A stretch of 64,000 nucleotides of DNA, taken from Laetmonice hystrix. Its lineage: Eukaryota. The DNA lies in the NCBI GenBank assembly GCA_965235115.1, contig OZ249436.1:21764001-21828000 (forward strand), given 5' to 3'. Of this stretch, positions 5,704 through 64,000 are shown piece by piece. A program made the position numbers and the translations under genes. Position 1 is the first letter of the stretch, and each line of letters begins with the position of its first letter. The notes beneath the pieces are model-generated. The model did not search any database. It saw nothing but the letters and a program-made list of their open reading frames with translations, and was not told where the DNA came from.

Positions 5704-6287
5704 GTGGGGGTAAAATTTCTCCAAATTCGTCAAAACTCGCTAGCGTATGGTTGGAAATCATTCCAGTATAACATAAAAAATAAGATCTCCAAAATGCATC
5801 CGCGATTGCACCATTTTAAACATGAAATTGTCAAAGGTTTCGCCGCGGGAGGGACCACCCTCCCCAAGTTGCGCCACAAAAGTCCAGGCTTTTTCTCCTT
5901 GACCTGAATCACACCCTGTTACGGCATATAGGCTATTGTCGCCGCGTGCATATTTTGTCGCCGGCGACAATATATGACAATGTTCATGGCATATAATATT
6001 ATTGTTGCCGGCACATAATGTCGCCGGCATATATATTGTCGCCAGCGACAATATGTGCAGATAAATACGGCACATATTGTCGCTGCGCAATTTGCTAATA
6101 GGGTGTTTGCAATGGGTAGGGTTCACTAGTCCGAGGGTTCACTAGTCCGAAGTTTGACTGTGTCGTCCCATATAGCAGAACAGGGACTGACATCACGGGT
6201 CGTTAAAACTATACATTTGTACCTCCAATGCGAACTCACCGCTGTGTAGAGGTCTACAATTCGTCGTGAATCATGCCGTTTGATCAA

Positions 6288-6720
6288 CCCTGATAAAACA
6301 CACACGCTGGTACAACTTTGGGCCAACGTCAACAGCTACGTTGGGCCACCGTCAGATGCCAACATTGGACCCAGGTCATTTTGCTCATTGGGCCCATGTT
6401 GGGCCACCAGTTGGGCGAACGTTGAAACAGGCCATTGGCCCAACGTCAGACCAACGTGCTTACAAACGTTGAGCCAACGTCAGATGCCCGACGTTGGACC
6501 AACGACATTTTGCTCATTGGGCCCATGCTGGGCCACCAGTTGGGCGAACGTTGAAACAGGCCATTGGCCCAACGTCAGACCAACGTGTTTACAAACACTA
6601 TTACGTCTAATACCAATGCTGGGCCAACGTCAGATGCCCGACGTTAGAGCAACGACATTTTGCTCATTGGGCCCACGTTGGGCCATCAGTTGGGCCAACT
6701 TTTGGCACGACCTTGCTGGG
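6288..6720. repeat. Repeat built from TTGGGCCAACGT palindromic motifs (~120-bp internal duplication), CCC...GGG ends
   Basis: TTGCTCATTGGGCCCA recurs at ~6381, ~6500 and ~6660. Explains the repetitive ORF 6280-6759. Confidence 0.7.
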
Positions 6721-7035
6721 TTCCCACAAGGACACTCCAGCCCCAGCCAATTTAAATAGACTCCCAAATAAAATCCTGGCTCAGGCAGAACCATTGCGTG
6801 GGTACGCTATAGTATCTCCTGTGCCAGTTAAGCACTGATGCGTAACACCTAAACCCCGGTCCTCACTATTGATGTTTCCTGTCGGAAATCCAAATTGGTG
6901 TTTTCTATATTGGGTTGTTTAAAAACAAAATATAATCTCTACGTCCCTATCATGTTCTTTTCACAAACAAAGAACAAATAAAGCTTAATTTTACACAATG
7001 AATAGCTGTTCTTATATTACGTGCGAATGACTTAA

Positions 7036-7575
7036 AGGGGCATGCTATGAAACACGTTTTTGAGGATTTCCGGCAATTATCCAACATGACCGTGTACTAG
7101 GGATCCAAGTAAATAATCCTACCACAGCATGTTGTCCTCCGACGTGTTTTCGCTGCGTATGCAGCACAAGTAGGTTCTATACGACCAAACCTATAGATTT
7201 CTCCCGATAGCACATCTCCCGCCATAATTTGGCGGACAACCCCCCCCCCCCCCCCCCCATCAACCCGTGTAATTGCATACTGCGTCACATCCTGTGTGTG
7301 CACGCTCTGCATGTGCTTAGTCACGTGCTTTGTTTAGTTGTAAACAATTCAGCAGTGGCACCCGATCGCCCGGCATCAGAATGCCACCCAAAAATATTTT
7401 GCGAAACCGGCAGAGAAGCGGGCAAGGGAGCTTAATAAACTTCGATTTCTCACGCAAAATGAAACTGATAAGTCTGTCTTTGTTTACTAAGCAATTTTAA
7501 TGAAGGATCTCTTCATGAAAACAGCAAAAGTTCTATGAAATACCGATTTTTAACGTTTCCTCATAATATGCCCCT
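7036..7575. mobile_element. Kolobok-type MITE
   Basis: TTAA|AGGGGCATGCTATGA ... TCATAATATGCCCCT|TTAA. Confidence 0.8.
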
Positions 7576-7659
7576 TTAAAGTCGCTAAAAGCTAACCTGG
7601 ACTGTATTTGAGACAGGCTGTAGTCAATCTCACTGATAACAGCGCTAGGTACAGAAGAA

Positions 7660-8610
7660 TTCCAACGTTGGGCCAACATTGGTGTTCCAACTGGGTTCCA
7701 ACAAAGAGGGTGGCAATAGTACTGACTTAATGCAACAAATTGGGCCAACGTGGGTATTCCAAGCGGGTTCCAACAAACAGGGTGGCAATAGTACTGACTA
7801 AATACCAACATTGGGTCAACGTGTGTGTTCCAACCGGGTCCCAACTCCAAAACTGGCGACAGTGCTAAACAAATACCAACGTTGGGCCAACATGGATGTT
7901 CCAACCGGGTCCCAACTCCAAAGCTGGCGACAGTGCCGACCAAATGCCAACGTTGGGTCAACATTGGTGTTCCAACCGGGTTCCAACAAAGAGGCTGACG
8001 GCAGTGCTGACTAAATAACAACGTTGGGCCAACGTGGGTGTTCCAACCGGGTCCCAACTCTAAGGCTAACGACAGTGCTGACTAAATGCCAACGTTGGGC
8101 CAACATGGATGTTCAAACTGGGTTCCAACAAAGAGTGTGGCAATAGTGCTGACTAAATGCCAACATTGGACCAACGTGGGTGTTCCAACCGGGTTCCAAC
8201 AAAGAGGGTGGTGACAGTGCTGACCAAATTCCAACGTTGGACCAACATGGATGTTCCAACCGGGTTCCAACAAAGAGGGTGGCGATAGTACTGACTAAAT
8301 ACCAAAATTGGGTCAACGTGTGTGTTCCAACCGGGTCCCAACTCCAAAGCTGGGTTCCAACAAGAAAGGTGGCGACAGTGTTGACTAAATTCCAACGTTG
8401 GGCCAACATGGGTGTTCCAACCGGGTCTTAACTCTAAGGCTGGCGACAGTGCTGAATAAATACCAACATTGGGCCAACATGGGTGTTCCACTCGGGTTCC
8501 AACAAAGAGGGTGGCAATAGTACTTACTAAATGCTAACATTGGGCCAACGTGACGGGTTCCAACCGGGTTCTAACAAAGAAGGTGGCGACAGCGTTGACT
8601 AAATACCAAC
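7660..8610. repeat. 71-bp minisatellite, ~13 diverged copies
   Basis: Unit CCAACGTTGGGCCAACRTGGGTGTTCCAACCGGGTTCCAACAAAGAGGGTGGCGACAGTGCTGACTAAAT; unit starts at 7805, 7876, 7947, etc. Confidence 0.9.
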
Positions 8611-10705
8611 CCTCGAGGGTTAGGTCAATTAACGCTACTTGCAAACTGCGCAGATTGACAAGTTGAGTACAACGCCACCTAGGCCAACTTCCGGGTTTTT
8701 GGATGTGGTTTCTGAATGTCAATGTTTCGCAATCCATGGGGCACATTTTAACTTGGTGGCCCGTTTTAGACACTTTCCCCCTACAATTATTGTGCCTGCC
8801 TGTCCGCCACTCCACCCTCCCTCTCTTCCAGACACTTCTCTTCCACAATGATCACCGACAACAGTAACCGGCGCCGGTGACAATATATGCCAATGTCCAT
8901 GGCACATATTGTCGCCGGTGCAGTCCGCTACATGTATACCAATGCTACCAGCACATTGTCGCCGGCGACAATATGTGCACTAATGGGCGGCAATATAGCC
9001 TGTGCCATGAAGGTTGTCATATATTGTCGCCGTAATATTGTAATATTATATGCACGGCAACATTATATGCTGTAACACGGTGCTAGAAAATCGGGATATA
9101 GGCCTATATGTATTATCTCCCACTGCCTTTGAATGGTAAACATTTTTTAAACACGTTTTTGGTGCAATAATTGCAAGCCACACAGGGTAAATCACTAGGC
9201 ATAATCTGCCAGAACATGCATGCGTTTGCGTTTACAATTATAGTAACTGTGGTTCAATTCCCTATATATCATCAGAATATCATCTATATATCAATCCGTC
9301 ACCGTTAATCCGGGCGACAACCTCCTGGATGGAGCAGCTTAAGTATCGGCCCTTTCCGCCTTCATTATGCCACGTGAGATAAGCTTTGAGCTTTGTCACA
9401 GAGGTATCAGTCATCCTGATGAAAAAAAAATCCAATAAATAAACAAATAGCAATGTTTCTGTTAGTGCCCTATAGGGGAGACTGCACATGTGGATTGTAT
9501 CTGATTATCGTTACAGACGAGCGTTGTTGCTATGGAGGCAACAAGTGTATGCTTTTACGATTAGTAAACCCTGGACGCGCGGTATATTATGGTCGGGACC
9601 GTGCACTGACGGCAACCCATTGGCATTGGCCTTGCACGCTATATGCATCGATCGGCTTTGACCATCGCCCCCATCGATGTAGGCCTCCCTACATAATTCT
9701 ATGAGGTGGGAGAGGTGAGACGCCTTACATGTTCCATCAGGTCCCAACTGCAGTCAGGACCGGAGTGGTGAAGTTATAGGTCTACAGCTAGCGCTCCACA
9801 TTTCAAGTCGGGATACCTATTCAAGTCAGCTCCTATAGTGCAAACTCCGGGACGGATTATATGTGATGATACGAAAACGATGTTAGCATCAACTGTGGAA
9901 TACATGCCATGTTGTAGCACGGAATACAAAACGTTAATTTTGTCAGATTTCTTTGAATTATTTGTCTAGAGCAAAGACGTATGGCCGACTGATGTTTTAT
10001 TGGCACCGGGAAAGCAGGTGAGTGAATTGAGAGAGACGGGACCGCTGTATACACTAAGTAAGCTTACTTATAAACGCTTTTTCACACCTGTCATTCACCA
10101 TGATGTATGCTACTGCATGGCAACGGGCATTTTCACTGGGGCTGCTGTGGGCCTAGTATAGGCCCCCTACAGGGCGGATGAAGGTCTGTTATGATCTCAT
10201 CTGATACGTTATCCTATATCTGATGATATTATAATACTACGGGTAAATTGCAATAATGTTTGCATTCGATTTTTATATTAACATTATACAATGTATAATA
10301 AAACCTCAGACATCTGAAAAGGATAATCAAATCACAAAATGCTATCACGGTGGCCAAACCCCATTTATATGTAGGCCTACACTAGTCTTTCAAATTTGAT
10401 GGCACGCTTCCAAAGCTAATATACATGCATTAGTCGACACATATTTGTAATGCATGGACTATCATTCATGCAGTTCAAAGGCGCCATTCTGTCAGCCTGC
10501 ATTTTGATCACTATAATGATAGAGGTCTATTGCCGTTTTCAGGTGCTTTGACTGAGATAGGAACAGTCCCATGACATGGTAAAACATCGCCAGCCGAATG
10601 GGACAGATCCACGCCACCATCTGAATCCGGACGCAAACCAGGTGACAGCTTCTTCAGAAATATTGTCAAGGTTGCCCCTGTCCCTTTGAACCCTCATCTA
10701 AGGCC

Positions 10706-11623
10706 ATGGCGCAGAAAAAGACAGTAGGATTTGGCACAACTATTTTGCGTAAAACTGTCTTTTTCAACACAATGGTTGGACCTGACGATGTTCACAGCCA
10801 GACAAAGCCAAGAGCGTGGCTTGTTTTGTTAACCTCAATGTCATGTTCACTGGCATTGGGAACTGGGATGATTTACTACGGAACTAAACAGAACTTACGA
10901 GATATCACTGTTGTAGGTTCGGGTGCAATCTTCTGCGCAGCGTTGTTGTTTCTTTTTGCCAGTGTTCTTTTCGCGAGGGACAGGTATTACTCCTGCCGCC
11001 AGCCGTCAATAATAAATGAGCAATCAAACATCAAACGAGAAACTGTGAAATCTGATGACCAATCGGACAGGCCGCAAGAAGGATCTCAATATGTTGTGCA
11101 GCCATCAGACACTATTCCACCAGCAATTCAAAGCATTTCAAACAGCTCGTTCAGTAAAAACATTGACGAGGAGTTGGGAGTTGTGAACTCGAGCCGTTCC
11201 GGGTTGTACCGGAAAGTCACTTCAGCAGGAGAGCGGAGTGAAGGGGTTGTTACAGTGACTGAGCTATCTCTCCGTGAAGCCTCGCCGTGTGACTCAACCG
11301 AACACAGCCAGCCGCCAGTTCACATGACAGATAATTTTGCCTTCGAGGTGAATGAAAACGTATTTGACGAGGAACCTGTTTACAAAAAGCCACTGGAGGT
11401 AAGCGTGGCACCCAAGGACAGGCGGGTCGACTCGACAGGAGATCTCCGAGGGGAGAGCAGCCCCCAGAGCATGAAGTCGGCGACCTCAGGACCAAGGAGT
11501 AGATCTCATACTCCCGATCTGGAATCGACACAGAGAGGGACCTCTCTCAGAGACATGTACTCACTCAGAGGCCAAGATGTGGATACCAGAGACAGTAACA
11601 TAACGAACAGCAGTGAGCTTTAA
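10706..11623 (+). CDS. Uncharacterised 305-aa membrane protein: two N-terminal hydrophobic helices plus a long Ser-rich tail
   Basis: 918-bp ORF with strong Kozak context (gccATGG) and an upstream acceptor (ttttcag at ~10542). Hydrophobic stretches AWLVLLTSMSCSLALGTGMIYYG and ITVVGSGAIFCAALLFLFASVLFA. Confidence 0.8.
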   Translation: MAQKKTVGFGTTILRKTVFFNTMVGPDDVHSQTKPRAWLVLLTSMSCSLALGTGMIYYGTKQNLRDITVVGSGAIFCAALLFLFASVLFARDRYYSCRQPSIINEQSNIKRETVKSDDQSDRPQEGSQYVVQPSDTIPPAIQSISNSSFSKNIDEELGVVNSSRSGLYRKVTSAGERSEGVVTVTELSLREASPCDSTEHSQPPVHMTDNFAFEVNENVFDEEPVYKKPLEVSVAPKDRRVDSTGDLRGESSPQSMKSATSGPRSRSHTPDLESTQRGTSLRDMYSLRGQDVDTRDSNITNSSEL

Positions 11624-51954: not shown

Positions 51955-52805
51955 TAAGACAAATCCATAAATCCCCTGAAATGCAGGTCCAACGCACCTG
52001 CTATCGCTTTCTTTACAATCATATCCCTAATAACCTTATACTAGGCAGGGCCGTAGGCCCTACACCCCCCCCCCCCCCCCCCCCCCCCCGGGGGGGCAGG
52101 GGGGACTTAGGCCCCTCCCCCCAATATTTGCAGTGGTGATAATTAGCCTAATTTACTAGGGAGAAACTCAGACCACTCTCTGCACTCTGCCTGTATAGCC
52201 CCCCCCCCCCTCAATAATTCAATGGAAATTATCTACATTCTGCTTAGAGATCTATAGGTCGAGACCCCTTTCGCAATTGCTATACCAAGCTCTGCGTATT
52301 GCTTTGTAGGCCTAGCCTATAATGAAACGTTGTTGTTATCGACTTTTTTGCGCACCCCCTGCACCGATTCGCCACTGCTATTAGGGAAGGAGGTGTAATT
52401 TCGGAGTCGTCTATAATGTCTTCTATATTGTCTAATTCAAGCTACCGATGCCGGTGTGAAAGACAAATCCATAAATCCCCTGAAATGCAGGTCCAACGCA
52501 CCTGCTATCCCTGAACTAGCTTTCTTTACAATCATATTCCTTATAACCTTATAGGCAGGGTCGTAGGCCCTACAATCCCCCCCCGGGGGGGGGGGCAGGG
52601 GGGACTTAGGCCCCTCCCCCAATATTTGCAGTGGTGATAATTAGCCTAATTTACTAGGGAGAAACTTAGACCACTCTCAGCACTCTGTTTGCCTGTATAA
52701 CCCCCCTCAATAATTCAATGGAAATTATCTATAGCCCCCTCAATAATTCAATGGAAATTACAGGCCTGCTTATAGGTCAAGACCCCTTTCGCACTTGCTA
52801 TACCA
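51955..52805 (+). repeat. Diverged direct repeat (~51955-52285 and ~52460-52805) of a dispersed repeat family
   Basis: AGACAAATCCATAAATCCCCTGAAATGCAGGTCCAACGCACC occurs twice; CCCCTCAATAATTCAATGGAAATT is also seen at ~15560 and ~17280. Confidence 0.8.
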
Positions 52806-55146: not shown

Positions 55147-55222
55147 GCCCGATGAGGGAGTTATTCGAACCCGCGACCCTCATATTAAAAGTGTGATGCT
55201 CTACCGACTGAGCTAACCGGGC
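55147..55222 (-). pseudogene. tRNA-Lys(UUU)-derived pseudogene or SINE head
   Basis: GCCCGGTTAGCTCAGTCGGTAGAGCATCACACTTTTAATATGAGGGTCGCGGGTTCGAATAACTCCCTCATCGGGC has the tRNA-Lys D-arm and a TTT anticodon, but a mismatched anticodon stem and an insertion in the T-arm. Confidence 0.75.
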
Positions 55223-55341: not shown

Positions 55342-55799
55342 AAACACACACGGCAAATAAGGTTTCGTAGACCAAATGAAACACCAGCATTTACCTCAGG
55401 GCAATAAATGCCACAATTACGTTGTCTGAATGAAGTAGGGGCCAATATAATTAACGTGTAGGCCCTATAACTGACCGATGTGTGACGCCGCTGGTTCTAA
55501 CCTTCCTCTGCTTGTGTGTTCATCACCTCGGACTTTCACAAACGTTGGGACTCCAAACATCGTGTAGACAAGGTCGGTGAGCAGAGTAACACGTAATGTT
55601 ACGCAATATGCCGTAGTGTGCATGCATTCGGCTCTGATGAACACACAAGCAGGTCGAGGTCAGAACCAGCGCGGCGTCACACATCGGGCAGTTACGCGTT
55701 AATTACTTCATTCAGACAACTTAATTGTGGCATTTATTGCCCTGAGGTAAATGCTGGTGTTCCATTTGGTCTACAAAACCTTATTTGCCGTGTGTGTTT
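55342..55799. mobile_element. Long-hairpin element with ~185-bp inverted arms, CACAC/GTGTG ends
   Basis: CACACACGGCAAATAAGGTTTCGTAGACCAAATG ... CATTTGGTCTACAAAACCTTATTTGCCGTGTGTG. Confidence 0.8.
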
Positions 55800-57475: not shown

Positions 57476-57575
57476 NNNNNNNNNNNNNNNNNNNNNNNNN
57501 NNNNNNNNNNNNNNNNNNNNNNNNNNNNNNNNNNNNNNNNNNNNNNNNNNNNNNNNNNNNNNNNNNNNNNNNNNN
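57476..57575. other. Assembly gap (100 N)
   Basis: Run of N; the transposon array starts mid-unit right after it. Confidence 1.
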
Positions 57576-57656
57576 CAGGAGGCACCCTCCACAAACGAGT
57601 CTACGTTTACTCAGTAACCTGCCCTGTACTTCTGTGACAGCCTGCCGCGGCTCCAT
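57576..57656 (-). CDS. 5' part of a His-Me finger nuclease copy, truncated by the gap
   Basis: MEPRQAVTEVQGRLLSKRRLVCGGCLL, identical to the starts at 60201 and 62292. Confidence 0.8.
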
Positions 57657-57753
57657 GATGCTTTGGTGGGTATGGGTGACACTCTCTGAATGTTGACTTT
57701 GGCAACCAGAAGTAAAATTCCTTTGTATAGTGAGTTTCCCATCAGGCCCCTAC

Positions 57754-58204
57754 AGGTTATGATCCACTATTTATTTTCTTCTATAATTTAATGTAATGTT
57801 TTGGCCATTTTCAATGTTTAAAATAATTTCTGCGAATGTCTGCTTGGCATGGCAGGTTAGATATGCATGTTTCCGACAATAAAAACTCAATTTACGTATA
57901 GGTTGAATGATTAGATTTTATTTTATCGGAGCTTCTGTTACATGACCCCAGGTGGCACCACCAAATCGACCAGAATACAGGCCTGTGATACATAACATAT
58001 TGGCTAAGATTTTCCAAGGAAAGTTAAGCAGATATTCTCTAATAATACACTGATATTATTGATCATATAGTGAACTTTTTCTCTGTGGTATTTGATGAGC
58101 ACATTCAGGGGGGTTATATCCATTCTTGGCCCTAGATACATTCACTCCATACCATTTTTGAGGGACAACCAGCAGCCCATTGGCTAAATAGGGGGTCATG
58201 ACCT
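57754..58204 (+). repeat. Long terminal direct repeat (LTDR) copy 1, 451 bp, with its own imperfect TIRs
   Basis: AGGTTATGATCC ... GGGTCATGACCT (10/12 inverted match), AC on both sides; near-identical to 62390-62839. Confidence 0.85.
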
Positions 58205-58931
58205 ACAGATCAAGACCCATCACCCCGAATCTGTTCAAAATTGGACCCCTTTAATGGTTATATGTTTGCAACAACCACACAAAATATAAATGGTGTAGAC
58301 TAAATGAAGACTGAGTTATCGATCATATACAATATGGACACTCGGAGATAAAAAAAACCCTATTTTGCCCTGCACTCATAGCAGTATTCTGACTTTGTGC
58401 ACAAATTAGACAATGAATAAAATTCATCTATGAACTTCTCATTTTAGTTATGTATTAAGCCAACATGTAAAGTGTTCAAAAGTTGAAATTAATAAATATA
58501 AAGTGAGAATCTTCATTCCCTATGAAGCATGTGAGTACCCCCTGTCATATTTTCAGTAAAAAAAAAGGTCCACTTTATTATATTTATCCCCATATCTCCC
58601 TATGTTGGATTTCAAAAGTGTCAAATTCAGTTGAGGGAATATGGGAAGGATGTTAACTTCAAAGAAACATCAAAAGAGATGTACTCCAAGTGTCTGTGTG
58701 GATGTATGGACCCCTCAAAGGTGGTCACCCACCCCAGGCAGGAAGCCTAGGTTAATAGGGGGAGGGGTTCAAAGGTGCCACTTGAGAGTCTGAGCTGCCT
58801 GGGAAGAGGGTGGGAGTGGGTATATATGAAGCCAACAGGCAGATCAAACTCAGTATCATTTTTCTGTTTGATTAGAACAGGATTTAAAAAAAAATTCGCC
58901 TAAATTATAGAGAATTTCTTAGAAAACTACC

Positions 58932-59712
58932 ATGACATCACGTAGCAGAAAGAAGCACAGCTGGAGACATGGCTTTCAACCTGGTAACTGCGCCTACAAG
59001 TTGAGAAAGCAGGCCGGTAGGCCTGAACCAGACGTAGGTGTCTATGTAAGACCCACCAAAGAAGAATTCGAATTACTCCGCTCACCTACACACAGTGGAA
59101 GAGGAGATCAGGCTGCAGCCACCATCACCGACAGTGAGGGCCGGCTGTGCAAGGCAAGGCCTTGCAAACAAAAAAAAGAAAAACTGGCTGTCACACAGTG
59201 CATTCCTGCCTGAGGGCTTTGGCCTTACATGCACGGATGGTGACAAGGAGAAACTGGTCAGACTGATTGAATACAGGCTGGGCCAGAAAGTCCTGGAAAA
59301 GACCAAACACCTGTTAACCACCCAGAAATGTGAAGCTGTCAACAGGGCCATAAGCAGTACAACACCCAAGAACAAAACATTTTCAAGGAACTTTGCTGCC
59401 AGAGTGCACTGTGCTGTGAATGCTGTGAATCGAGGGATTGGTGATTCAATCCTGAGTCAAACAGAGTTTGTGGGAGCCCCAGTCACTCCTGGTACACGGG
59501 TGACACGTGGCCTGCTGCGACGTCAGCAGCAGGACATGGCCAGAAAACTTGCCAGGGGGTCAACAAAGAAAAAGAATGCACGAATCAACAAAAGAAGGAC
59601 ACTTTTTAAGCTTAAGGACACCTGCGAACCACAGGATTCTAAAACTTATTACCAGAAAAATCTTGCCTTGAAACAGACTCAGCACAGTGACCATACCTAC
59701 ACAAAAATGTGA
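58932..59712 (+). pseudogene. Internally deleted, frameshifted Kolobok-type DDD/E transposase (copy 1)
   Basis: N-terminal part MTSRSRKKHSWRHGFQPGN.. shifts frame at an A8-G-A5 tract (~59170) to a C-terminal part with TTQKCEAVNRAISSTTPKNKTF..HCAVNAVNRG. This resembles the TQN.NE..N....PK motif around the catalytic Glu of Kolobok/'Mutator-like' transposases. ~260 codons is too short to hold the core. Confidence 0.75.
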
Positions 59713-59784
59713 ACATAAATTATGGCGGTGAGAGAGCTCGGGGTTAGACCTAAACTAAAGCTACACCTACCAGGAAAAAAACAG

Positions 59785-60201
59785 TTAGGGGGGCCTAGGG
59801 GTGTGTTCCCGGGTGCAAACTTGCTGTGCATTACAAACACGTCTTGCAGCATTCACTGGACGTGGCTCAAGGGTCAGGTGGGAGGGATTCACACACAGGG
59901 TTTGGTGGCACAAATGGCTAATTTCAACCCTATCTCCCTGAAGATTGATGTTGGGGGGCATTAAAATCTGAACCGAAATGTGGTTAATATTTGGTTGTTG
60001 AATAAGGTAGTGTAATTGATAGGCTAATCTATGGACACGAAAATAAATCTTTTTAGAGGAACCTGGCAAACGAAGACTTAGAACCCCATAGTGTGAATCT
60101 CCCCACCTGGCCTCTGTCCACAGGAGGCACCCTCCACAAACGAGTCTACGTTTACTCAGTAACCTGCCCTGTACTTCTGTGACAGCCTGCCGCGGCTCCA
60201 T
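59785..60201 (-). CDS. His-Me finger (His-Cys box, I-PpoI-like) endonuclease, 138 aa (copy 1)
   Basis: CLLW..YG..VHRLAY..EISHLCHQTLCVNPSHLTLEPRPVNAARRVC...C..H matches the zinc-binding loop of His-Cys box homing endonucleases (zf-His_Me_endon). Confidence 0.9.
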   Translation of the reverse strand: MEPRQAVTEVQGRLLSKRRLVCGGCLLWTEARWGDSHYGVLSLRLPGSSKKIYFRVHRLAYQLHYLIQQPNINHISVQILMPPNINLQGDRVEISHLCHQTLCVNPSHLTLEPRPVNAARRVCNAQQVCTREHTPRPP

Positions 60202-61021
60202 GATGCTTTGGTGGGTATGGGTGACACTCTCTGAATGTTGACTTTGGCAACCAGAAGTAAAATTCCTTTGTATAGTGAGTTTCCCATCAGGCCCCTACAG
60301 ATCAAGACCCATCACCCCGAATCTGTTCAAAATTGGACCCCTTTAATGGTTATATGTTTGCAACAACCACACAAAATATAAATGGTGTAGACTAAATGAA
60401 GACTGAGTTATCGATCATATACAATATGGACACTCGGAGATAAAAAAAACCCTATTTTGCCCTGCACTCATAGCAGTATTCTGACTTTGTGCACAAATTA
60501 GACAATGAATAAATTCATCTATGAACTTCTCATTTTAGTTATGTATTAAGCCAACATGTAAAGTGTTCAAAAGTTGAAATTAATAAATATAAAGTGAGAA
60601 TCTTCATTCCCTATGAAGCATGTGAGTACCCCCTGTCATATTTTCAGTAAAAAAAAGGTCCACTTTATTATATTTATCCCCATATCTCCCTATGTTGGAT
60701 TTCAAAAGTGTCAAATTCAGTTGAGGGAATATGGGAAGGATGTTAACTTCAAAGAAACATCAAAAGAGATGTACTCCAAGTGTCTGTGTGGATGTATGGA
60801 CCCCTCAAAGGTGGTCACCCACCCCAGGCAGGAAGCCTAGGTTAATAGGGGGAGGGGTTCAAAGGTGCCACTTGAGAGTCTGAGCTGCCTGGGAAGAGGG
60901 TGGGAGTGGGTATATATGAAGCCAACAGGCAGATCAAACTCAGTATCATTTTTCTGTTTGATTAGAACAGGATTTAAAAAAAAATTCGCCTAAATTATAG
61001 AGAATTTCTTAGAAAACTACC

Positions 61022-61803
61022 ATGACATCACGTAGCAGAAAGAAGCACAGCTGGAGACATGGCTTTCAACCTGGTAACTGCGCCTACAAGTTGAGAAAGC
61101 AGGCCGGTAGGCCTGAACCAGACGTAGGTGTCTATGTAAGACCCACCAAAGAAGAATTCGAATTACTCCGCTCACCTACACACAGTGGAAGAGGAGATCA
61201 GGCTGCAGCCACCATCACCGACAGTGAGGGCCGGCTGTGCAAGGCAAGGCCTTGCAAACAAAAAAAAAGAAAAACTGGCTGTCACACAGTGCATTCCTGC
61301 CTGAGGGCTTTGGCCTTACATGCACGGATGGTGACAAGGAGAAACTGGTCAGACTGATTGAATACAGGCTGGGCCAGAAAGTCCTGGAAAAGACCAAACA
61401 CCTGTTAACCACCCAGAAATGTGAAGCTGTCAACAGGGCCATAAGCAGTACAACACCCAAGAACAAAACATTTTCAAGGAACTTTGCTGCCAGAGTGCAC
61501 TGTGCTGTGAATGCTGTGAATCGAGGGATTGGTGATTCAATCCTGAGTCAAACAGAGTTTGTGGGAGCCCCAGTCACTCCTGGTACACGGGTGACACGTG
61601 GCCTGCTGCGACGTCAGCAGCAGGACATGGCCAGAAAACTTGCCAGGGGGTCAACAAAGAAAAAGAATGCACGAATCAACAAAAGAAGGACACTTTTTAA
61701 GCTTAAGGACACCTGCGAACCACAGGATTCTAAAACTTATTACCAGAAAAATCTTGCCTTGAAACAGACTCAGCACAGTGACCATACCTACACAAAAATG
61801 TGA
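61022..61803 (+). pseudogene. Internally deleted, frameshifted Kolobok-type transposase (copy 2)
   Basis: Same as copy 1 but with an A9-G-A5 tract. Confidence 0.75.
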
Positions 61804-61875
61804 ACATAAATTATGGCGGTGAGAGAGCTCGGGGTTAGACCTAAACTAAAGCTACACCTACCAGGAAAAAAACAG

Positions 61876-62292
61876 TTAGGGGGGCCTAGGGGTGTGTTCC
61901 CGGGTGCAAACTTGCTGTGCATTACAAACACGTCTTGCAGCATTCACTGGACGTGGCTCAAGGGTCAGGTGGGAGGGATTCACACACAGGGTTTGGTGGC
62001 ACAAATGGCTAATTTCAACCCTATCTCCCTGAAGATTGATGTTGGGGGGCATTAAAATCTGAACCGAAATGTGGTTAATATTTGGTTGTTGAATAAGGTA
62101 GTGTAATTGATAGGCTAATCTATGGACACGAAAATAAATCTTTTTAGAGGAACCTGGCAAACGAAGACTTAGAACCCCATAGTGTGAATCTCCCCACCTG
62201 GCCTCTGTCCACAGGAGGCACCCTCCACAAACGAGTCTACGTTTACTCAGTAACCTGCCCTGTACTTCTGTGACAGCCTGCCGCGGCTCCAT
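61876..62292 (-). CDS. His-Me finger endonuclease, 138 aa (copy 2)
   Basis: Translation identical to 59785-60201. Confidence 0.9.
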   Translation of the reverse strand: MEPRQAVTEVQGRLLSKRRLVCGGCLLWTEARWGDSHYGVLSLRLPGSSKKIYFRVHRLAYQLHYLIQQPNINHISVQILMPPNINLQGDRVEISHLCHQTLCVNPSHLTLEPRPVNAARRVCNAQQVCTREHTPRPP

Positions 62293-62389
62293 GATGCTTT
62301 GGTGGGTATGGGTGACACTCTCTGAATGTTGACTTTGGCAACCAGAAGTAAAATTCCTTTGTATAGTGAGTTTCCCATCAGGCCCCTAC

Positions 62390-62839
62390 AGGTTATGATC
62401 CACTATTTATTTTCTTCTATAATTTAATGTAATGTTTTGGCCATTTTCAATGTTTAAAATAATTTCTGCGAATGTCTGCTTGGCATGGCAGGTTAGATAT
62501 GCATGTTTCCGACAATAAAAACTCAATTTACGTATAGGTTGAATGATTAGATTTTATTTTATCGGAGCTTCTGTTACATGACCCCAGGTGGCACCACCAA
62601 ATCGACCAGAATACAGGCCTGTGATACATAACATATTGGCTAAGATTTTCCAAGGAAAGTTAAGCAGATATTCTCTAATAATACACTGATATTATTGATC
62701 ATATAGTGAACTTTTTCTCTGTGGTATTTGATGAGCACATTCAGGGGGGTTATATCCATTCTTGGCCCTAGATACATTCACTCCATACCATTTTGAGGGA
62801 CAACCAGCAGCCCATTGGCTAAATAGGGGGTCATGACCT
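62390..62839 (+). repeat. LTDR copy 2, 450 bp
   Basis: AC|AGGTTATGATCC ... GGGTCATGACCT|AC. Confidence 0.85.
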
Positions 62840-63565
62840 ACAGATCAAGACCCATCACCCCGAATCTGTTCAAAATTGGACCCCTTTAATGGTTATATGT
62901 TTGCAACAACCACACAAAATATAAATGGTGTAGACTAAATGAAGACTGAGTTATCGATCATATACAATATGGACACTCGGAGATAAAAAAAACCCTATTT
63001 TGCCCTGCACTCATAGCAGTATTCTGACTTTGTGCACAAATTAGACAATGAATAAATTCATCTATGAACTTCTCATTTTAGTTATGTATTAAGCCAACAT
63101 GTAAAGTGTTCAAAAGTTGAAATTAATAAATATAAAGTGAGAATCTTCATTCCCTATGAAGCATGTGAGTACCCCCTGTCATATTTTCAGTAAAAAAAAA
63201 GGTCCACTTTATTATATTTATCCCCATATCTCCCTATGTTGGATTTCAAAAGTGTCAAATTCAGTTGAGGGAATATGGGAAGGATGTTAACTTCAAAGAA
63301 ACATCAAAAGAGATGTACTCCAAGTGTCTGTGTGGATGTATGGACCCCTCAAAGGTGGTCACCCACCCCAGGCAGGAAGCCTAGGTTAATAGGGGGAGGG
63401 GTTCAAAGGTGCCACTTGAGAGTCTGAGCTGCCTGGGAAGAGGGTGGGAGTGGGTATATATGAAGCCAACAGGCAGATCAAACTCAGTATCATTTTTCTG
63501 TTTGATTAGAACAGGATTTAAAAAAAAATTCGCCTAAATTATAGAGAATTTCTTAGAAAACTACC

Positions 63566-64000
63566 ATGACATCACGTAGCAGAAAGAAGCACAGCTGGAG
63601 ACATGGCTTTCAACCTGGTAACTGCGCCTACAAGTTGAGAAAGCAGGCCGGTAGGCCTGAACCAGACGTAGGTGTCTATGTAAGACCCACCAAAGAAGAA
63701 TTCGAATTACTCCGCTCACCTACACACAGTGGAAGAGGAGATCAGGCTGCAGCCACCATCACCGACAGTGAGGGCCGGCTGTGCAAGGCAAGGCCTTGCA
63801 AACAAAAAAAAAGAAAAACTGGCTGTCACACAGTGCATTCCTGCCTGAGGGCTTTGGCCTTACATGCACGGATGGTGACAAGGAGAAACTGGTCAGACTG
63901 ATTGAATACAGGCTGGGCCAGAAAGTCCTGGAAAAGACCAAACACCTGTTAACCACCCAGAAATGTGAAGCTGTCAACAGGGCCATAAGCAGTACAACAC
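63566..64000 (+). pseudogene. Transposase remnant, copy 3 (runs off the window)
   Basis: Same as copy 2, including the A9 tract. Confidence 0.75.

Follow-up and report, generated by a model that had tools for sequence, protein, structure and literature searches.

Positions 57576-64000 of a 64,000-nucleotide stretch from the annelid Laetmonice hystrix (GenBank assembly GCA_965235115.1, contig OZ249436.1) raise the question of what kind of repeat is assembled there and how it came to stand in tandem. The window, meaning this whole stretch, corresponds to positions 21764001-21828000 of the contig, which is called C1 in the following (C1:21764001-21828000). In a repeat search, the region features direct repeats at spacings of 2090-2092 and 2543-2545 bp, and its copies match each other at E = 0 in blastn, far above chance. 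The region is very probably part of a 20-kb multimer of a non-autonomous KolobokP DNA transposon, one copy of which would have inserted at this locus and would then have multiplied in place.

KolobokP elements were described by Kojima and Bao (2022, Mob DNA 13:24; PMC9587614). As defined there, they are bounded by long terminal direct repeats (LTDRs) of ~450 or ~660 bp, which carry their own terminal inverted repeats (TIRs) and feature RR..YY termini and target site duplications (TSDs) of 3-5 bp. The TIRs measure 11-18 bp in the text of that paper and up to 25 in its Table S1, and the TSD is usually 4 bp in families with ~450-bp LTDRs. [quoted passage not shown] Solo LTDRs, multimers with shared LTDRs, and joints between internal regions that are 3-4 bp short belong to the same description, and no strong target preference is reported (PMC9587614). 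The seven phyla with KolobokP listed there include Annelida, with Owenia and Paraescarpia. A preliminary description of the locus had given this architecture after Kojima and Bao, in agreement with the paper (PMC9587614).

In the window, the limits of the LTDR modules and of the internal regions of ~2.09 kb (INTs) were set from junction strings. The resulting order is INT-tail / LTDR / INT / INT / LTDR / INT, directly 3′ of a scaffold gap:

57476-57575: scaffold gap of 100 N, the only run of N in the window; the array starts right after it
57576-57754, plus strand: partial INT, final 179 bp, ending in TACA, 100% identical to INT positions 1917-2095
57576-57656, minus strand: first 27 codons of a third copy of the nuclease open reading frame (ORF), within the partial INT and cut by the gap
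57755-58203, plus strand: LTDR copy 1, 449 bp, 5′-GG..CC-3′
58204-60299, plus strand: INT copy b, 2,096 bp, with TACA at start and end
60296-60299: INT-INT joint, a single TACA common to two abutted INTs, with no LTDR between them
60296-62390, plus strand: INT copy c, 2,095 bp
62391-62838, plus strand: LTDR copy 2, 448 bp, differing from copy 1 by one T in a run of T
62839-64000, plus strand: INT copy d, first 1,162 bp, running off the window end; the array extends another 13.6 kb

TACA stands on both sides of each LTDR in the window and only once at the INT-INT joint. The LTDR features an imperfect TIR of 19 bp, in which 16 of 19 positions match (57755-57773 against 58185-58203), and its last 10 bp, GGTCATGACC, form a perfect palindrome. 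This anatomy agrees with the four near-identical segments of ~2.09 kb, two complete and two partial, that had been noticed at first. The interleaved modules with TIRs of their own are likewise present, whereas their earlier length of 450/451 bp has to be corrected to 448/449 bp with symmetric GG..CC ends; the ends had been placed one base further out (AG..CT). Beyond the window, the array runs on to C1:21841594 and measures 20,019 bp as a whole, with 7 LTDRs, 7 full INTs, and 2 partial INTs. On the right, it ends with an INT cut short at position 2035 of 2095; unrelated sequence comes next, without an intervening LTDR. The copies in the window show 0 substitutions and differ solely by single-base indels in runs of A or T: one in a T run between the LTDRs, three in A runs between the full INTs, and one between INT copies c and d.

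Each full INT carries the remains of a transposase on the plus strand that converge on a nuclease ORF on the minus strand, as had been pointed out before:

59095-59712, plus strand: transposase C-terminal remnant ORF, copy b; N-terminal piece at 58932-59213 in another frame
61237-61803, plus strand: transposase C-terminal remnant ORF, copy c; N-terminal piece at 61022-61357 in another frame
59785-60201, minus strand: 138-aa His-Me (His-Cys box, I-PpoI-like) nuclease ORF, copy b; 10-bp insertion at 59786-59795
61876-62292, minus strand: 138-aa His-Me nuclease ORF, copy c; 10-bp insertion at 61877-61886

The 138-aa ORF matches the Pfam family zf-His_Me_endon (PF05551) with an E-value of 9.4e-14 and 52.2 bits against a cut-off of 27, in keeping with the class first proposed for it. 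I-PpoI is its only match among the PDB sequences (best E 1e-4, over 5 distinct sequences), and a profile of the nuclease alignment again retrieves only I-PpoI, at E 7.1e-9; the printed HMMER alignment ends at I-PpoI residue 130. A HMMER search of 1.84 billion representatives with a 164-aa form of the nuclease as query yielded 763 relatives at E <= 0.001 and 60 at E <= 1e-10, the best being 45% identical, while a word-index homologue search with the 138-aa form gave 6 candidates, none of them at E <= 0.001. The alignment consists of 59 rows, namely 57 of 150 listed relatives, chosen for query-like length, and two forms of the element. In the numbering of the 164-aa form, C25, Y38, S95, C103, H108, E112, and C123 are invariant in the 59 rows, and W28, G39, H57, R58, H96, C98, H99, N117, R120, C129, H133, and C137 are conserved in at least 90% of them. 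This set includes the His-Me catalytic residues and eight Cys/His. We take C129, H133, and C137 to be the likely equivalents of the last three zinc ligands of I-PpoI, judging by their pattern, beyond the aligned part.

The catalytic set S95, H96, H108, E112, and N117 is present in all forms of the nuclease, and the Cys/His set is complete in the 164-aa form (8/8) and nearly so in the 138-aa form of the window (7/8). The window ORF ends in ...EHTPRPP before the stop codon, in place of the family ending ...P.C.., and most relatives stop 2-3 residues past C137. This loss of the C-terminus including C137 is due to the 10-bp insertion. Since the last zinc-binding Cys is lost, the window copy is probably impaired, as far as its sequence tells. 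The fetched loci hold 47 instances of the nuclease ORF, which are not all independent as some loci overlap: 39 are 138 aa long (in three variants), 1 is 140, 2 are 164, 4 are 42, and 1 is 74 aa long. The 164-aa nuclease belongs to the full-size copies described below, the 74-aa one to a monomer of 2,998 bp, and the frameshifted 42-aa one to every seen unit of an array at C1:22.0 Mb.

The transposase is in a poorer state. Its remnant in copy b keeps the region of the last catalytic E (TTQKCE) and has neither the D residues nor DxxH, and none of the four plus-strand ORFs (59095-59712, 61237-61803, 58932-59213, and 61022-61357) has a Pfam match. A genome search with the 188-aa remnant gave 518 candidates, 150 of which were scored and are all 97-99% identical; 2 of these 150 matches lie in an open frame of 670 aa within an element of 4,178 bp. 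This element features the same LTDRs (99.3%), an INT of 3,282 bp, and two convergent ORFs, one of 667 aa and one for a 164-aa nuclease. The 667-aa protein matches PF20700 over the full profile (E 3e-52, residues 106-485). It carries D262 in VEMDSRY, TTDPD at 364-368, DTHH at 393-396 as the DxxH motif, a Cys/His cluster at 470-485, and E542 in TTQKCE; catalytic roles were given to D262, D366/368, and E542 from the place of the motifs and a visual comparison with a single published consensus. Relative to the 4,178-bp copy, the window INT shows 27 substitutions, a deletion of 1,222 bp, a deletion of 9 bp, an extra segment of 33 bp, and a 10-bp insertion, TAGGGGGGCC, at INT 1582-1591. The 1,222-bp deletion, sited at ~61250-61256 in copy c, removes transposase aa 77-486 and, with them, both D residues, DxxH, and the Cys/His cluster; in all window copies, the two remaining pieces, N- and C-terminal, lie in different frames. 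Because the deletion takes the whole catalytic core and shifts the frame, the window units are non-autonomous on the evidence of their coding sequence; the preliminary description had called them so, and what they lack can now be stated as aa 77-486 of the 667-aa transposase. The extra 33-bp segment, which lies close upstream of the start codon of the nuclease, occupies INT positions 2008-2040 (in copy c, 62303-62335) and is missing in the full-size copies. It is flanked by TTTGG microhomology, and the right end of the array at INT position 2035 falls inside it.

With the deleted core of 410 aa as the query, 12 matches among 17 candidates were found in the genome. They comprise five identical copies at C1 72.16-72.27 Mb, one on contig C10, also in an open frame of 670 aa, and broken pieces on contigs C5 and C11. 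As the five C1 copies agree at 100% identity and also in their flanks and TSD (TGTG), they represent one insertion inside a host duplication. The six open 670-aa frames thus amount to two insertion events, against hundreds of deletion derivatives. Between the full-size copies, at C1:72157011-72217551, LTDRs occur at a spacing of ~3,042 bp, which suggests that some host repeat units contain the full element and others, at the corresponding place, a solo LTDR. The nearest protein clusters in the Atlas are PF20700 proteins of ~650 aa, commonest in Mollusca, then in Parabasalia and in Cnidaria with THAP; these taxa fit the range of Kolobok given in the Background of PMC9587614.

How far the architecture of the window extends over the family was determined by counting exact 29-mers across the junctions in the 627-Mb assembly of 35 contigs. 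Reversed controls were all 0, and the counts are lower bounds:

INT-INT joint: 167 in the genome, all with a single TACA
INT-to-LTDR joint: 309 in the genome
LTDR-to-INT joint: 185 in the genome
LTDR 5′ end: 492 in the genome

At least 476 INTs have a standard 3′ joint. For the LTDR, 520 candidate places were counted in the genome, and the 40 that were scored are 99.8-100% identical. LTDR counts overstate insertions because a solo LTDR was copied along with a host tandem repeat of ~4 kb at C1:21.876-21.973 Mb. There, at C1:21875784-21973283 and ~35 kb past the window array, LTDRs follow each other every ~4,042 or ~2,997 bp with no INT between them; at C1:21875601-21880400, both LTDRs have identical flanks and the TSD AAAA, that is, one solo LTDR amplified with the host repeat.

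Eight boundary pairs were examined, and perfect 4-bp TSDs are present at seven of them:

Solo LTDR: TSD TTTA
Monomer of 2,998 bp: TSD TAAA
Full-size copy of 4,178 bp: TSD TGTG
Array at C1:66.48-66.61 Mb, 123,926 bp: TSD ATTA
Array at C20:13.34-13.43 Mb, 95,168 bp: TSD ACAA
Array at C29:1.206-1.238 Mb, 32,282 bp, LTDR-(INT)15-LTDR: TSD TTAA
Solo LTDR in the host tandem repeat, C1:21.876-21.973 Mb: TSD AAAA

Solo LTDRs, monomers, (LTDR-INT)n forms, and LTDR-(INT)n forms are all present in the genome, and the 2,998-bp monomer, six 4,178-bp copies, and three arrays each carry an LTDR at either end, both pointing the same way. Full-length copies, solo LTDRs, and TSDs, for which a genome-wide search had been proposed, are thus all found, and the ~450-bp module bounds the element outside the window as well: in the monomer with TAAA, in the solo LTDR with TTTA, in the full-size copies with TGTG, and in the arrays with their TSDs.

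These boundaries bear on whether the module might be an unrelated miniature inverted-repeat transposable element (MITE) that inserted into a transposon-derived satellite of 2.09 kb. Such an origin would account for the TIRs of the module itself, for its appearance in the window, where it resembles an insertion into an INT-INT joint flanked by repeated TACA, and for solo copies that transpose or persist alone. However, the INT lies between two modules of the same orientation in the monomer and in each of the six full-size copies, and the TSDs lie outside the module pair and not round each module. Arrays start and end with the module, and an INT precedes 309 of the 492 LTDR 5′ ends. A chance MITE is scarcely credible on these grounds, and the module is best read as the terminal repeat of the element.

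The arrays vary in composition. According to its junction coordinates, the 124-kb array contains 53 INTs and 29 LTDRs, with 1-4 INTs between successive LTDRs, and INT-only runs reach 15 units on contig C29 and ~47 units on contig C6. The C6 array measures ~103 kb, is mostly INT-only, and has a ragged right end; at C6:21887944-21985534, occasional units of ~2,854 and ~3,143 bp occur among those of 2,092 bp and possibly represent other deletion variants. At C4:32604818-32658607, an array has a period of 2,423 bp and is devoid of the standard LTDR-to-INT 29-mer. As its first LTDR joint is present and the second is not, this array carries a variant junction, ~120 bp shorter. At C30:18952001-18962000, an unrelated sequence of ~2.4 kb, presumably a further insertion, splits one INT near position 2067-2071, and this interruption explains a period of 4,918 bp on that contig. 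At C1:22006776-22055826, 165 kb downstream of the window array and in opposite orientation, lies an array of 49 kb in which the terminal G of one LTDR is missing; it belongs to a subfamily that differs by 18 substitutions per INT.

Set beside the published definition, the family shows the structural traits of KolobokP: an LTDR of 448/449 bp, a 19-bp TIR, GG..CC termini, 4-bp TSDs, and a convergent His-Me nuclease. Solo LTDRs, multimers, and the shortened INT-INT joint are present, too. The transposase trait is found in the 4,178-bp copies, and only its E region survives in the window. In addition, TTQKCEAVNR...PK...RNFAARVH of the 667-aa protein resembles, by eye, the C-terminal pattern of the KolobokP-2_MiYe consensus (TQKCE..NR...PK...RNF.AR.H). 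Terminal motifs of the LTDR (11- to 21-mers) have 0 matches in four supplementary files of PMC9587614, and its Table S1 contains no family of 4,178/448 bp. The palindrome GGTCATGACC matches once in these supplements, internally in the INT of KolobokP-2_MiYe and not at a terminus, and was set aside. The element is a new family of a known kind, set apart by its termini and dimensions, in a phylum already known to carry KolobokP; the earlier suspicion that it might be undescribed holds for these supplements and this table.

Growth at the locus is indicated by the divergence of 24 full INT units from fetched parts of seven loci. Pairs within an array differ by 0-1 substitutions, pairs between arrays by 5-21. 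In the window array, all pairs of the 7 units show 0 substitutions, which fits the description of the array as young, and the same value is found at C1:22.0 Mb. The arrays at C1:66.5 Mb and on C29 (first stretch) show at most 1 substitution per INT pair, the first and last sampled units of the 95-kb array on C20 are identical, and 8 substitutions separate the two ends of the C6 array. Taken with the TSDs, the identity within arrays implies that each array is one insertion that was expanded or homogenised at its own locus. At the window locus, one copy would have been moved in trans by the 667-aa transposase acting on the LTDR ends. The array would then have grown in place by unequal exchange between repeated units, on sister chromatids or homologues, and internal LTDRs may have been lost by excision and rejoining on the flanking 4-bp TACA, leaving INT-TACA-INT joints. 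This last step follows the reading of INT-INT joints in PMC9587614.

Several points weigh against this account. As regards the identity of the element, the Pfam model matched by the transposase (PF20700) is named "Mutator-like transposase", and the likeness to Kolobok rests on this model, the motifs, and one published consensus compared by eye. The window nuclease is without C137, a nearly invariant Cys and the last of the zinc ligands. Only 1 of 7 TSDs reads TTAA, as is classical for Kolobok, while the 4-bp length fits; the scarcity of TTAA does not bear on membership because KolobokP has no strong target preference (PMC9587614). The name of the Pfam model could also mean that the element belongs to the Mutator (MuDR) superfamily and not to Kolobok, all the more as the C/DxxH motif is common to Kolobok, MuDR, hAT, P, and Dada (PMC9587614, Background). 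The TSDs are 4 bp long in 7/7 clean cases, however, and the TIR measures 19 bp. MuDR elements feature TSDs of 8-10 bp and long TIRs. The RR..YY termini, the LTDR architecture, and the convergent His-Me nuclease are defining traits of KolobokP, and the C-terminal motifs of the transposase look, by eye, like those of the KolobokP-2_MiYe consensus. On these traits, a MuDR identity is highly improbable, and KolobokP is the very probable assignment.

As regards the array, no TSD can be demonstrated for it and its true size is not fixed, owing to the 100-N gap on its left and the truncated INT without an LTDR on its right. At the C1:22.0 Mb array, the remaining one of the eight boundary pairs, no clean TSD was found. 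The differences between copies are all homopolymer indels, which are possibly sequencing errors, and polishing could have erased true differences. The unit numbers rest on the assembly, as all support from public runs consists of contigs. An assembly artefact, in which one or a few real units were inflated or a repeat was misjoined beside the gap, would fit both the adjacency of the array to the 100-N gap and the homopolymer-only differences, which look as if reads of one unit had been placed repeatedly. It is at odds with several observations. Two other runs, one from a marine metagenome (where the shorter side of the joint measures 135 letters) and one from another organism, also have contigs with the LTDR-to-INT head-to-tail joint. 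In gap-free sequence, three further arrays have LTDRs with matching TSDs at both ends, the irregular INT-INT-LTDR-INT pattern is not expected from simple over-collapse or over-expansion, and KolobokP elements of other genomes show junctions of these types (PMC9587614). Two marine metagenomes are among the 16 public runs listed for the element, and none of the 16 is an RNA run. In the public-run contigs, no INT-INT joint was seen, and in one public run contigs break exactly at the LTDR 5′ end with another flank. On balance, an artefact is very unlikely, and the region is taken as a genuine KolobokP multimer.

What drove the growth of the arrays is a separate matter. Kojima and Bao proposed that the nuclease cuts inside the LTDR and induces unequal crossover (PMC9587614), and a 2026 review states that the induced-crossover model awaits experimental confirmation (PMC13565253). 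I-PpoI acts as a dimer, recognizes a semi-palindrome, and leaves 4-nt overhangs (PMC9587614). A sequence of comparable shape spans the junction between the 3′ end of the LTDR and the start of the INT:

58193-58218: 26-bp near-palindrome, GGGTCATGACC-TACA-GATCAAGACCC
62828-62853: second copy of the same near-palindrome

Its arms are complementary at 9/11 positions; no other of the 4,876 windows in the unit reaches this value, and shuffled sequences give 0.63 such sites on average. As the near-palindrome was noticed post hoc, it has the status of a hypothesis and not of a result.

Arrays might exist because the nuclease cuts the element and a register-shifted sister copy templates the repair, the "induced unequal crossover" of Kojima and Bao. 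This proposal competes with the account given above only on the driver of growth and not on the identity of the element, and we regard it as possible though rather unlikely. In its favor, the nuclease ORF is retained with intact catalytic residues in a derivative without the transposase core, and 40/47 instances of the ORF are open at 138-140 aa, some loci overlapping and not all instances being independent. The 164-aa form from the full-size copies, with all eight zinc ligands, could act in trans. The multimers are extreme, with up to 53 INTs in one TSD-bounded array, and a TACA-centred 26-bp near-palindrome at the LTDR/INT junction has a shape suited to a dimeric His-Cys box enzyme leaving 4-nt overhangs. 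On the other hand, the 138-aa form is devoid of C137, conserved in at least 90% of the 59 rows, and the 49-kb array at C1:22.0 Mb has the frameshifted 42-aa nuclease in 4/4 units seen. The INT-only runs (15 units on C29, ~47 on C6) grew without internal LTDRs, where a figure of PMC9587614 puts the cut. Ordinary unequal exchange is enough for tandem arrays, the crossover model is still awaiting its experimental confirmation (PMC13565253), and the palindrome was spotted after the fact.

A more specific version, which we consider doubtful, holds that the family is still expanding and that the nuclease, supplied in trans by the two full-size insertions or present as the 138-aa form, cuts GGGTCATGACC-TACA-GATCAAGACCC at each LTDR/INT junction. 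If this were true, a staggered cut on TACA would explain the gain of units by register-shifted repair, the low-divergence arrays of up to 124 kb, and the 167 INT-TACA-INT joints, and the family would be the first system for a direct test of a homing-type endonuclease that makes a transposon a self-amplifying satellite, with a defined candidate site.

Irrespective of the driver, the family offers clean material for the question of nuclease-driven amplification: TSD-closed arrays of 32-124 kb with near-zero internal divergence and INT-only runs; intact, C-terminally altered, and frameshifted nuclease genes in arrays side by side; only two transposase-competent insertions; and a specific near-palindromic candidate site. 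It also shows how a transposon turns into a macrosatellite totalling ~1 Mb and why assemblies fail at such loci, the gap beside this array being a case in point. In annotation, the repeats of ~2.09 and ~0.45 kb are to be treated as one composite element and not as a satellite plus a MITE.

Other features of the window lie outside the array. They are given by window position:

6250-6759, plus strand, and 7533-8081, minus strand: long open frames of a repeated unit of ~27 aa (e.g., ...GPCWATSWANVETGHWPNVRPTCLQTL...), a tandem repeat open on both strands
10646-11623, plus strand: open frame of 325 aa with a predicted membrane-like N-terminal part and a tail rich in Ser, Asp, and Glu, possibly a single-exon host gene
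52079-52189 and 52577-52687: direct repeat of 111 nt, 86%
55150-55219, minus strand: tRNA-like match (Rfam tRNA, 33.3 bits), adjoining the following inverted repeat; the only Rfam match in the window and unrelated to the element
55342-55437 and 55704-55799: inverted repeat of 96 nt, 97% complementary, with 266 nt between the arms, MITE-like

The mitochondrial genome of the assembly is contig C35 (16,826 bp), on which all identified genes lie on one strand (table 5). Their order is trnS(UGA), nad1, nad3, nad2, cox1, cox2, cox3, trnQ, nad6, cob, atp6, nad5, nad4L, and nad4, followed by ~2.4 kb, where the rRNAs should lie. The start of the contig features about four tandem copies of a unit of ~512 bp, as judged by ORF periodicity, presumably the control region. 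The positions of atp6 between cob and nad5, of nad5 before nad4L/nad4, and of nad3 between nad1 and nad2 are seemingly restricted to annelids and their kin; the placement of nad6/cob directly behind cox3 has a wider distribution (Mwinyi et al. 2009, PMC2639372). One dominant mitochondrial order occurs in 110/149 annelids, and that of Oweniidae is different (Struck et al. 2023, PMC10405356). The order on C35, as read from the sequence, is most likely the common annelid (Pleistoannelida) arrangement. A vertebrate host was rejected, since the assembly yields just 12 weak matches to C1-set immunoglobulin domains (best 43 bits) and its mitochondrial arrangement is of invertebrate type.

Among known systems, the nearest are the KolobokP elements themselves, which feature the same ~450-bp LTDRs with short TIRs, RR..YY termini, 4-bp TSDs, and TSD-bounded multimers. 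KolobokP-1_MeMe has TATA at its INT-INT joints (PMC9587614), whereas the family in Laetmonice hystrix has TACA, one 4-bp word in both cases. The scale differs: the main text of PMC9587614 names nothing above (INT)4, compared with 53 INTs and 29 LTDRs in 124 kb here. Unlike the KolobokP description, the amplified derivative has a nuclease without the last conserved Cys. A counterpart of similar dimensions is KolobokP-N2_ParEch from the tubeworm Paraescarpia echinospica, likewise an annelid and a non-autonomous element, of 2,972 bp with an LTDR of 455 and an INT of ~2,062 bp, and INT-INT adjacency is visible in its coordinate map (PMC9587614). The family described here measures 2,991-2,998 bp with an LTDR of 448 and an INT of 2,095 bp and is set apart by these lengths and by a terminal 11-mer that is missing from the published consensus file.

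The nuclease shares the motif SHLCH..C.NP.HL..E....N....C with I-PpoI and the His-Cys box homing endonucleases of nuclear group I introns. I-PpoI is the only solved relative, its catalytic residues are S97, H98, H110, E114, and N119, and the eight Cys/His of the family match the two zinc sites described for it (PMC9587614). Unlike that of I-PpoI, the nuclease gene here resides in a transposon and not in an intron or an rRNA gene. Bacterial composite transposons, IS26-type pseudo-compound transposons, and the arrays of long terminal repeat (LTR) retroelements of the terminal-repeat retrotransposon in miniature (TRIM)/Cassandra type are functional analogies (PMC9587614). They resemble the arrays described here in that terminal repeats are mobile, neighbours share a terminal repeat, and solo repeats arise via recombination, and they differ in their enzymes and hosts, the LTR arrays also in forming partly via reverse transcription, which is excluded here.

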